IMG/VR virus record: IMGVR_UViG_3300045988_093246
Coordinates: 1 to 44,640 of that record
Direction: 5' to 3' (one strand)
DNA: 44,640 bases
From: a virus
The stretch's first letter is position 1. Each line of letters opens with the position of its first letter. The position numbers and the translations under genes are program-made. Positions 33,905 through 35,725 of the stretch are shown piece after piece. The notes under the pieces were generated by a model. It was given only the letters and a program-made list of their open reading frames with translations. It did no database searches and was not told the origin of the DNA.

Positions 33905-35725
33905 TTATGCTTTACTCTGTAAATTAATCAATGTCATATATATCTTTTTAGGTGTCTTATTGTCATCATAATACTCTACATCCTCAAGTATATATCTGCC
34001 GCCACGATTTATTAATAATTCTTTTTCACCCTCGAATACAGATATACTATCTACATACATCGCTTGTGAGCCTTTAGGCACTTTAACAATATACTCTATA
34101 GATTTATCAAAACCGCCGCGGGGGTCGGGTGACGCTGAAAAGAAGGCTTTAGCGGTTAACGGTGACCCTTTGATATTTTCCAAATTCGCTTTTGAGAAGT
34201 CAACTCCCAATTCTTCAAGCATGTTATAATCATCTCCACGCCTTACTATCATATCCCTTGTAGTGCTTGCTTTCTCCAGCGCGCTCGCGCACATATCAAT
34301 ACTATTTATAATTCTTTCGCCTACTTCATCCGCGGTCATTTGACCTCTTAAGTAAGCATTCATCAACTCATAGCTACCACCCGTATAAATTCTTACCCCG
34401 CGCTGTTCTTCGCTTGTAATCTTTTTAGCCCATTCATTGCACCACTCGCGCATTTTACGTAAATTGTTAGTCCTTAAACTATCATGCCATTCTTCTTTAT
34501 TATACCCGCTCTTGAAAGTTTGTATAATCTTATCAACAACTTTGCTATCTTCTTTAGGCGATTTCTTCAACGCTTCTTTTGCGGTCTCTTTCACCGCTTT
34601 TTTAACAGTTGCCTTTTCTGTAATCTGCTTATCTTTGCCGTTATATATATGCTTATCATACCACTCTTGCCATGTCAAGCCTTCCTGTTGTTTAAGGAAC
34701 TTTGCTTCTGCCTTTTGAACATGCGTCATGCTCTGATACCATGTGTTCATCGACTTTGTACTATTACCGTATTTACTTAAATAATCCTTTACCGACTTAA
34801 TCGGCTTCGCTTCGTAACCAAAATTACTTGCGAACTCATCTATCTCGGGGTATGTTCCATCGGGACTGTTAAACCAATCCGCTAGTTTTTCGTTCATATC
34901 TTTATCTATCGTTGGCTCCATTACACACATACCGTTAGGATGGTCCATCGGTAAATCGTCCTTTTTGTAATGCACGCCATCGCGTGACATACATAACTCA
35001 CATACACGGCTACCATTTGCGCGCCATACATAATCTAAAATAAACGGGTTGTCTTTCGTTGTTGATATAAAACTCTGCTGATAGCTATGTTGTACTAGAG
35101 TTCGCGCTAACCTCTGCGCGTTATAGTCAACCTGTTTCTTATATATTCGCACACCGTCTGCCATACGTAAATTCCACGGTAGCCTTGCATTAGGTCTTAC
35201 ATAGCTTTCTAAATCCTTCACAATATCATATATAGGCTTTTGCTCGGCAATTCCTTTTGCCATTACTTGGTATATATCCTTTAAAGTCTGTTCGTTATCT
35301 CCCCAAATTCTTTTGCTTAAACTCCAACCGCTCTTATATATCTGGCCTGTAACAAGTCTCTCAACCGTATCTTTAGGCACATAACTAAAAGTAGCATTTA
35401 AACCTTCCTCTGAAAAACCAAAAGATTTTAACCATTCTACATTACTCTTTACAACCTCGTCCGATATAAGATACATATTACTTTTTATTTTATTATATAT
35501 CTCATTGCTTACCTGTTCGCTTGTCTTTCTTAGCTGTCTTCTTAACTGCCTGTAATACCTTTCAGAAATAAAATCGCTAGAAGCAAACTTGTGGGAATAA
35601 TACTCCGCTTGTTTTGCTATGTCATCCGCCCAATCTTCATACAACTTAGCAATCTCCTTTTGTTGTTCCACCATAATGCTTTTCTTTGCTTCTTCGGCGT
35701 CCTTAAAAACAAGCTTATTTGCCAT
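33905..35725 (-). CDS. Minor head protein (SPP1 gp7 / Mu F-like) fused to a C-terminal ADP-ribosyltransferase toxin domain
   Basis: 606 aa. MuF signature ...CELCMSRDGVHYKKDDLPMDHPNGMCVMEP. The C-terminal ~200 aa carries the R-S-E ART triad: YTGGSYELMNAYLR (Arg region), FFSASPD (STS-like) and EGEKELLINRG (ExE motif), matching C2/C3/VIP2-like ARTs. Confidence 0.7.
   Translation of the reverse strand: MANKLVFKDAEEAKKSIMVEQQKEIAKLYEDWADDIAKQAEYYSHKFASSDFISERYYRQLRRQLRKTSEQVSNEIYNKIKSNMYLISDEVVKSNVEWLKSFGFSEEGLNATFSYVPKDTVERLVTGQIYKSGWSLSKRIWGDNEQTLKDIYQVMAKGIAEQKPIYDIVKDLESYVRPNARLPWNLRMADGVRIYKKQVDYNAQRLARTLVQHSYQQSFISTTKDNPFILDYVWRANGSRVCELCMSRDGVHYKKDDLPMDHPNGMCVMEPTIDKDMNEKLADWFNSPDGTYPEIDEFASNFGYEAKPIKSVKDYLSKYGNSTKSMNTWYQSMTHVQKAEAKFLKQQEGLTWQEWYDKHIYNGKDKQITEKATVKKAVKETAKEALKKSPKEDSKVVDKIIQTFKSGYNKEEWHDSLRTNNLRKMREWCNEWAKKITSEEQRGVRIYTGGSYELMNAYLRGQMTADEVGERIINSIDMCASALEKASTTRDMIVRRGDDYNMLEELGVDFSKANLENIKGSPLTAKAFFSASPDPRGGFDKSIEYIVKVPKGSQAMYVDSISVFEGEKELLINRGGRYILEDVEYYDDNKTPKKIYMTLINLQSKA

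Follow-up and report, generated by a model that had tools for sequence, protein, structure and literature searches.

Can a structural protein of a phage head double as a toxin that enters the next host together with the DNA? The question is raised by one gene, at 33905..35725 on the minus strand of IMG/VR virus record IMGVR_UViG_3300045988_093246. The whole stretch analyzed, 44,640 nucleotides and called the window here, is a nearly complete 44.7-kb phage genome in which essentially all long open reading frames (ORFs) lie on the minus strand. An earlier note, prepared from the sequence alone, read the gene product as an SPP1 gp7/Mu F-like minor head protein ending in an ADP-ribosyltransferase (ART) toxin domain, and proposed it as an injected effector. 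Our analysis confirms the observation and supports the interpretation with two caveats: the catalytic arginine had been mis-assigned, and the MuF label is indirect. The explanation we consider reasonably probable, and hold with some reserve, is that a minor head protein made of a MuF-like domain, a Lys-rich linker and an ART would be packaged, injected, and kept silent by an 83-aa protein encoded downstream.

The fusion protein and its catalytic domain

The 606-amino-acid (aa) ORF is present as described and contains all three motif strings that the note had quoted; an identical protein (P0001) is encoded on a metagenomic contig of 44,673 nt. The gene, its domains and motifs, and the two genes that bear on its reading are listed below, with model confidence given as predicted local distance difference test (pLDDT) scores.

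33905..35725, minus strand: MuF-like/ADP-ribosyltransferase fusion gene, 606 aa, ATG start (PF03496 94 bits; PHROG 1657 4e-50)
34814..35725, minus strand: N-terminal MuF-like head-morphogenesis domain, aa 1-304 (PHROG 1657 and Dp-1 Gp40 homology; signature C242-x2-C245...H262-PNGM-C267)
34442..34813, minus strand: linker, aa 305-428, with one helical 'KYGxSTKS...WQEWY' module and a Lys-rich disordered tether
34541..34630, minus strand: the Lys-rich tether, aa 366-395, predicted disordered (pLDDT ~28-31)
33923..34441, minus strand: C-terminal R-S-E mono-ADP-ribosyltransferase domain, aa 429-601 (PF03496; pLDDT 80-93; Foldseek)
34346..34387, minus strand: NAD-binding helix Y447-T448-x3-Y452-x3-N456-x3-R460, YTGGSYELMNAYLR, aa 447-460
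34229..34252, minus strand: Region 1, MIVRRGDD, aa 492-499, with catalytic Arg R496 and G497
34124..34144, minus strand: Region 2, FFSASPD, aa 528-534, with STS-type motif S530-A-S532
34001..34033, minus strand: Region 3/ARTT, EGEKELLINRG, aa 565-575, with ExE motif E567-K-E569
33590..33841, minus strand: 83-aa 4-Cys (CxxC...C...C) small ORF, predicted ART antidote or partner (AAGGAG ribosome-binding site; co-inheritance with the ART)
35771..37306, minus strand: SPP1-type portal gene, directly upstream of the fusion gene (PF05133, E=1.7e-18), whose product is the expected docking partner of the MuF-like domain

Hidden Markov models (HMMs), sequence matches to solved structures, and fold together confirm the C-terminal domain as a C3/VIP2/iota-type ART, of the R-S-E or cholera-toxin group, with an intact active site, and the strength of these matches is far beyond chance. 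The note had suggested a search against ART-family HMMs, which returned a significant match to PF03496 (ADPrib_exo_Tox) over aa 429-601, at 94 bits against a cut-off of 23.4 (E=9.9e-27; model positions 9-193 of 196). Among PDB sequences, phmmer matched Lmo0066 (8za7_B; 4e-13) and Clostridium perfringens BEC-a (1e-10), followed by CdtA, iota Ia, C3, Vip2, and Certhrax. A single-sequence AlphaFold prediction of the full protein gave a pLDDT of 36 and was replaced by a model built from a 56-sequence alignment, in which the ART domain reaches a pLDDT of 80-93. Comparison of this model with known structures, likewise suggested by the note for the C3, VIP2 and iota toxins, bore the assignment out: Foldseek matched C3bot1 (4e-11) and 8za7_B (TM-score 0.82, root-mean-square deviation 2.8 Å), together with Plx2A, Certhrax, CdtA, iota, and Vip2. 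A weak partial match to a PHROG labeled 'Alt-like' (7e-6) covers aa 343-478.

The active site required one correction. A complete R-S-E signature is present, as claimed, but its catalytic arginine is R496 in IVRRG and not the Arg of AYLR; the segment from YTGG to AYLR that the note had included in the signature corresponds instead to the upstream NAD-binding helix. EGEKELLINRG does contain the ExE glutamates, in the form of E567-K-E569, whereas E565 in the same string is variable and reads Q in relatives. In BEC-a and Lmo0066 the counterpart of R496 lies in the 'YR(R)G' strand, and E567-K-E569 pairs with the E-x-E of BEC-a. Alignments A4 and A5 span clades with ART domains only ~29-55% identical, and in them Y447, N456, R460, R496-G497, S530, E567, and E569 are invariant; S532 is nearly so, S530 fully, and R460 is replaced by K in one close relative. 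All of the predicted catalytic residues are conserved in a family of more than 1,600 proteins, every one of them metagenomic, whose longest contigs measure 45-55 kb.

Because the motif is ExE rather than QxE, it predicts arginine as the acceptor. Three further observations were counted in favor of the same specificity. The ADP-ribosylhydrolase (ARH) found in sister cassettes is nearest to DraG, Tri1, and Lmo0067; the closest solved ART, 8za7_B, is one half of an ART-ARH effector-immunity pair; and Bxa, a characterized MuF-ART, modifies arginines (PMC11699363).

For the N-terminal 304 aa, the SPP1 gp7/Mu F-like label of the note has only indirect support, via Dp-1 Gp40, PHROG 1657, and gene order; a direct assignment is not borne out, since curated models stay below threshold and direct profile alignment is weak (figures below). 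A BLASTP alignment of 264 aa with Dp-1 Gp40 (E=3e-30) takes in the C-x2-C...HPNGMC signature; Gp40, annotated 'virion structure', itself clears the threshold of PF04233, with 32.2 bits. Over aa 8-334 there is also a match to PHROG 1657, 'head morphogenesis' (4e-50), and the gene order of portal, fusion gene, scaffold, and major capsid is that of SPP1, where gp7 is a low-copy, portal-bound capsid protein. On the grounds of this transitive homology and synteny, we call the domain MuF-like, a probable divergent subfamily and not a direct Pfam member.

Between the two folded ends, the linker is where related proteins differ in length. Relatives carry 0-2 additional modules of ~85 aa exactly there, and the window copy is the shortest form (alignment A1). 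In one relative (L028) the module is duplicated in tandem, visibly by eye; a self-BLAST for linker repeats gave nothing informative. A coverage of 61-71% among close relatives had prompted the idea of C-terminal polymorphism within this group. Alignment led us to reject it, as the ART is conserved and the linker modules alone vary. A scan for promoters and terminators around the genes returned signals at chance level.

The toxin cassette and its small 4-Cys protein

The small ORF begins 63 nt downstream of the fusion gene, with an AAGGAG ribosome-binding site 9 nt upstream of its ATG at 33841, and an independent gene caller found the same ORF. Its product has no match in Pfam or PHROG. Within its family, N28, C33-x2-C36, N48, C52, K59-P60, G66, and C69 form an invariant pattern, and the family profile finds only generic Zn-ribbons in the PDB (eL40 and HypA, E>0.03). 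A similarity to the AvrRxo1-ORF2 antitoxin, seen with the single sequence at E=0.22, disappeared with the family profile and was discarded.

What ties this ORF to the ART is the pattern of inheritance. We retrieved 38 related loci and scored each for every window protein; 20 are ART-positive, with the window counted, and 17 are evaluable and ART-less. The small ORF is present in 20/20 ART-positive and 0/17 ART-negative loci (Fisher p=6e-11, for loci that are not independent). The tree of the N-terminal domain implies six or more switches in ART state, each accompanied by the same change in the small ORF. In three pairs of ART-positive and ART-negative loci with flanks 83-96% identical, homology breaks off at MuF codon ~305 and is regained shortly ahead of the next conserved gene; these breakpoints delimit linker, ART, small ORF, and ARH as one discrete block of 2.16 kb.

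The ARH is the variable member of this block. A DraG-like ARH of 276 aa (PF03747, 169 bits), its start overlapped by the small ORF, occurs in 10 of the 20 ART-positive loci. Its nearest matches are DraG (2.5e-38), the Tri1 entries 6dre/6drh (4e-25), and Lmo0067 (2e-23), the last being chain A of 8za7 and so the partner of the best ART match. Within the window, tblastn at E<=10 found no ARH anywhere, the close clade of the window likewise has none, and no ARH or macro domain was found elsewhere in the window.

Among sister loci, the same N-terminal domain occurs with no C-terminal domain at all (306-329 aa in length), with the ART, with an HExxH domain, or with a QxE ART-like domain. The variants other than the ART described above are the following.

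L015, 5995..7461: HExxH metallopeptidase-like C-terminus, with a weak anthrax lethal-factor-like match (E=0.007)
L024, 5995..7710: HExxH metallopeptidase-like C-terminus
L031, 237..1283: weak, divergent ART-like C-terminus with a QQE motif (PF03496 E=0.018)

Each of these variants is followed by its own unrelated small ORF, of 51, 61, or 71 aa, and the toxin-less forms have none. As C-terminal domains are swapped, each with a small ORF of its own, the locus is of predicted polymorphic toxin architecture with cognate immunity.

Some relatives depart from this layout. In the closest ones, from the same IMG/VR metagenome (3300045988), the MuF-ART gene is frameshifted in the Lys-rich linker (L006) or has lost ~430-700 nt through internal deletions that cut away a portion of the linker along with much of the ART (L007-L009); all four retain the small ORF, with an 8-aa tandem duplication in that of L008. 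These are either natural ART-loss variants or assembly artifacts. L001 has an insertion, at 6457..9366, that separates the portal from the MuF-ART gene and comprises two ORFs, one of 411 aa and one for a 553-aa collagen-like protein with G-P-Q-G repeats.

Two other ORFs near the cassette were considered as immunity genes and rejected. Coding for Zn-ribbon proteins of 146 and 161 aa, they lie at 32505..32945 and 32972..33457 on the minus strand, between the toxin cassette and the scaffold gene. Both occur with or without the ART and so fall outside the cassette; they are head-module genes, not immunity genes. In Dp-1, a Zn-finger ORF likewise adjoins the MuF gene.

The small domain also reaches beyond phage heads. 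An exhaustive search of 1.84 billion representatives returned 92 clusters with this domain, nearly all of 55-95 aa, and stand-alone members flank an ART and/or an ARH in 5/5 cases sampled. In P0307, seen in 3 independent samples (L046-L048), it is fused in frame to a full ARH with no MuF-ART adjacent; this fusion adjoins DUF3987 and helix-turn-helix genes. P0249 (L049) joins DUF1643 to the small domain directly upstream of PARG and Macro genes, and P0299 (L050), P0300 (L051), and P0301 (L057) are further members outside phage head modules. Other fusion partners are GIY-YIG_3 and DUF6508, the DUF6508 fusion lying beside an integrase, and a stand-alone copy was found in a McrBC/NERD/PDDEXK island without an ART. 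It is possible that the occurrences outside head modules represent anti-ART countermeasures on mobile elements.

Taken with its co-inheritance, these contexts suggest that the small protein is probably the antidote of the ART. Its ties to ADP-ribosylation and to the enzymes that undo it are several and independent, and most simply it would bind and block the ART. A more ambitious proposal, which we offer tentatively and with well under even confidence, is that the domain defines a new ART-neutralizing zinc-ribbon family: in the phage it would silence a head-packaged arginine ART until injection; elsewhere, fused to ARH or near PARG and Macro genes, it would disarm the ARTs of incoming phages; and its presence in an apparently virulent phage would mark MuF toxins as infection effectors and not solely as weapons of lysogens.

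A proposed packaged effector and the competing explanations

The explanation we prefer starts from the domain identities, the conservation of catalytic residues, the structure of the cassette, and the strict linkage of small ORF and ARH to the ART. The fusion gene would be transcribed together with the head genes, and the MuF-like domain would dock the protein at the portal, placing a few copies inside the capsid. During synthesis, the ART would be silenced by the co-encoded 83-aa 4-Cys protein, to which sister phages may add the DraG-like ARH as an additional counter. At the next infection, the protein would exit the capsid along with the DNA, and the ART, now free of its inhibitor, would use NAD+ to ADP-ribosylate arginines of one or more host proteins early on, for take-over or anti-defense. 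What we infer are the steps of packaging and injection, the inhibitory role of the small protein, the specificity for arginine, and the target.

The lifestyle of the phage bears on all of this. No integrase was found among ORFs of at least 198 aa, and no other lysogeny-related domain in the scanned ORFs, small repressor-like ORFs having been examined only in part; in more than 240 related clusters the longest contig never exceeds 55 kb. Phage and relatives thus look non-temperate, as judged from gene content. The relatives come from gut or animal metagenomes, with metagenome-assembled genome (MAG) labels of Clostridia/Oscillospiraceae, and a Gram-positive host fits the Amidase_3/PG_binding endolysin.

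Several points weigh against the packaged, injected, and self-silenced effector. On the side of the head, PF04233 (Phage_Mu_F) scores 14 bits on the N-terminal domain (E=0.09; 16-25 bits for clade relatives) against a cut-off of 29.6, and TIGR01641 scores 27-31 bits over aa 195-263 against 39.65, both sub-threshold; hhalign of the clade profile is weak against SPP1 gp7 (E=0.006, 6% probability) and Mu gp30 (E=0.14); and the model of this domain is mediocre, with a pLDDT of 50-77. The literature still states virion carriage and injection of MuF toxins as open. On the side of immunity, no homology of the small protein to known immunity proteins was detectable in single-sequence and profile searches of the PDB, and Bsi, the small partner of Bxa, is described as globular and alpha-helical, which sets it apart from the Zn-ribbon-like 83-aa 4-Cys protein. 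The linkage of small ORF and ART could partly reflect adjacency in one mobile block. Given the GIY-YIG_3, DUF1643, and DUF6508 fusions and the ART-less defense island, the role of the small domain may exceed ART inhibition. Finally, a phage without lysogeny genes kills its producer anyway, which makes the need for self-immunity less obvious.

Among the rivals, the enzyme might serve as a fitness factor or interbacterial toxin in the manner of Bxa, released at lysis or carried by virions to non-hosts, where it would hit competitors or animal cells, with the small ORF protecting the producer alone. Bxa is a MuF-ART of a gut Bacteroides prophage with activity on epithelial myosin II, antibacterial activity, and two immunity proteins; Jamet 2017 proposes a competition role for MuF toxins, and the window's relatives come from gut and animal metagenomes and Clostridia MAGs. 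Such a role, however, needs lysogens that survive and benefit, and the scanned ORFs described above yielded neither an integrase nor another lysogeny domain; the genes lie on one strand, the phage encodes a DNA polymerase, a primase, and a single-stranded-DNA-binding protein (SSB) of its own, and no contig of the family exceeds ~55 kb. The closest fold and sequence, moreover, belong to a bacteria-targeting Listeria toxin-immunity pair, not to actin or Rho toxins. We regard this explanation as unlikely, and a toxin in a phage without lysogeny genes argues against competition between lysogens as the sole purpose. Alternatively, the ART could act late in the producing cell, modifying host or phage proteins during assembly or shutting down an abortive-infection defense, with the fusion merely coupling its expression or location to assembly rather than serving injection. 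The gene does sit in the late structural operon, the T4 enzymes ModA and ModB are phage ARTs that are not packaged, and the existence of the ART-deleted or frameshifted variants L006-L009 implies that the ART is dispensable for particle formation. An enzyme meant to act as soon as it is made would hardly need a co-expressed, strictly linked neutralizer, with an ARH besides in sister phages, and an in-frame fusion to a portal-associated protein via a disordered tether is the recurrent layout of predicted head-packaged effectors; late action is accordingly hard to credit, and we rate it improbable.

Nucleic acids could be the target, through bases or ends of DNA or RNA, as for R-S-E ARTs of the pierisin and Scabin type or for RNAylation by T4 ModB. 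Guanine-modifying R-S-E/ExE enzymes exist, and the enzyme types found fused to the small domain (GIY-YIG_3, DUF1643) or adjacent to it (PARG, Macro) also act on nucleic-acid ADP-ribose adducts; both facts were counted toward this substrate. Yet the linked hydrolase is DraG/Tri1/ARH1-like and so of the arginine-specific branch, and the nearest characterized relatives (the Lmo0066 pair, BEC-a, iota, CdtA, Bxa, and EFV) are protein ARTs, of which the arginine-specific ones carry ExE. We give a nucleic-acid substrate a slim chance. That the domain is a catalytically dead structural appendage is barely tenable, when its key residues stay invariant over clades only ~29-55% identical and it retains dedicated antidote genes.

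The 4-Cys partner, should it prove an inhibitor, would be a new small ART-blocking domain. Given its fusions to ADP-ribose hydrolases in other contexts, it may also mark countermeasures of hosts or mobile elements against phage ARTs. Gut phages commonly carry MuF-fused toxins, and the present family offers a useful means of probing packaging, injection, and neutralization: its abundance, the compact 606-aa form, sisters naturally lacking the ART or the ARH, and a single small candidate inhibitor make it a convenient test system.

The remainder of the window is that of a well-equipped phage. Its other features are these.

1..20000, minus strand: replication and recombination set, with a 903-aa DNA polymerase, primase, SSB-like protein, and UvsX/RecA-like recombinase, and further a Cas4-type exonuclease, two resolvases, an AAA/CbbQ-like ATPase, and a DUF7192 protein; a 172-aa ORF here matches just part of a DNA methyltransferase family
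37322..38761, minus strand: lysis cassette with an r1t-type holin (77 aa), a 98-aa DUF4406/nucleoside 2-deoxyribosyltransferase-like ORF, and an Amidase_3 + PG_binding_1 endolysin; its position between large terminase and portal, inside the packaging/head module, is unusual
39078..39929: ~0.85 kb between the large terminase gene and the lysis cassette, with no coding-strand ORF above 31 aa, no tRNA, and no Rfam match
42001..44640: AT-rich stretch near the contig end (GC 26% at 42-44 kb versus ~34% elsewhere) with few long ORFs, which may be a regulatory or terminal region

Scans of the window for tRNAs and Rfam families returned nothing.

Comparison with known systems

The note was right that MuF-toxin fusions are a known class. 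MuF-ART fusions have been published several times over (the EFV toxin in 2010, Jamet 2017, a 2022 survey, and Bxa/Bsi/BAH in 2024), and ARTs account for 14% of the 191 MuF toxins of Jamet 2017. A close published likeness is the EFV toxin (Q838U8) of an Enterococcus faecalis V583 prophage, described as a Firmicutes phage MuF minor-head protein with a C-terminal C2/VIP2-like ExE ART, whose toxicity is abolished by ExE mutations (Fieldhouse 2010, PMC3000352). By its published positions (Y345/T346/F350/N354/R358 and R394-G395), it shares with the window protein both the helix spacing and the 36-residue interval before R-G. The EFV toxin differs in that it is 487 aa long and prophage-borne, with no immunity gene described.

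For immunity, a close counterpart is Bxa, a promiscuous arginine ART from a Bacteroides stercoris prophage (Brown 2021; Alexei et al. 2024, PMC11699363). Its activities include modification of epithelial non-muscle myosin II and an antibacterial effect; Bsi is a small protein that binds Bxa and has been modeled in its active site, and BAH is an ARH (PMC11699363). The gene order is shared, with the toxin followed by a small non-enzymatic ORF and, in the window's sister loci, by an ARH, whereas the window's own clade has no counterpart of BAH. Bxa measures 869 aa and belongs to a Bacteroidales prophage, whereas the window protein, at 606 aa, comes from a Clostridia-type phage in which no lysogeny genes were found, and the 4-Cys partner is probably analogous, not homologous, to Bsi. 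In Apk2-IapK-Aph1, too, the specific binder is always present and the product-reversing hydrolase is variable (Ahmad 2023, Viala 2025), so that both systems parallel the constant 4-Cys ORF and the intermittent ARH described here.

More broadly, the window and its sisters follow the plan of the MuF polymorphic toxins, with a conserved N-terminal domain, swappable C-termini, small ORFs of their own, and two-tier immunity. The rule that a small ORF (<150 aa) lies directly downstream of the toxin-bearing forms alone holds for the 83-aa ORF as well. That family is described in Jamet 2017 as exclusive to temperate phages and prophages, whereas the window phage and its relatives look non-temperate, and their N-terminal domain falls below the Pfam MuF threshold.

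Outside phages, Lmo0066-Lmo0067 of Listeria monocytogenes (8ZA7) is the closest to the ART in both solved structure and sequence, and the ARH of sister cassettes is a homolog of the Lmo0067 partner. This pair is chromosomal, has neither a phage head fusion nor a 4-Cys partner, and no publication on the target of Lmo0066/8ZA7 was found in the literature searched. T4 Alt offers a functional parallel, as a virion-internal ART of the Alt/VIP2 family that is delivered with the DNA and modifies RNA polymerase alpha. The analogy is one of function only, since Alt has no MuF fusion and no immunity gene described. It is also packaged by another route. The fusion protein of the window is thus a member of the already known MuF-ART class, to which this analysis adds a family of 4-Cys partner domains that also occur fused to ADP-ribose hydrolases.

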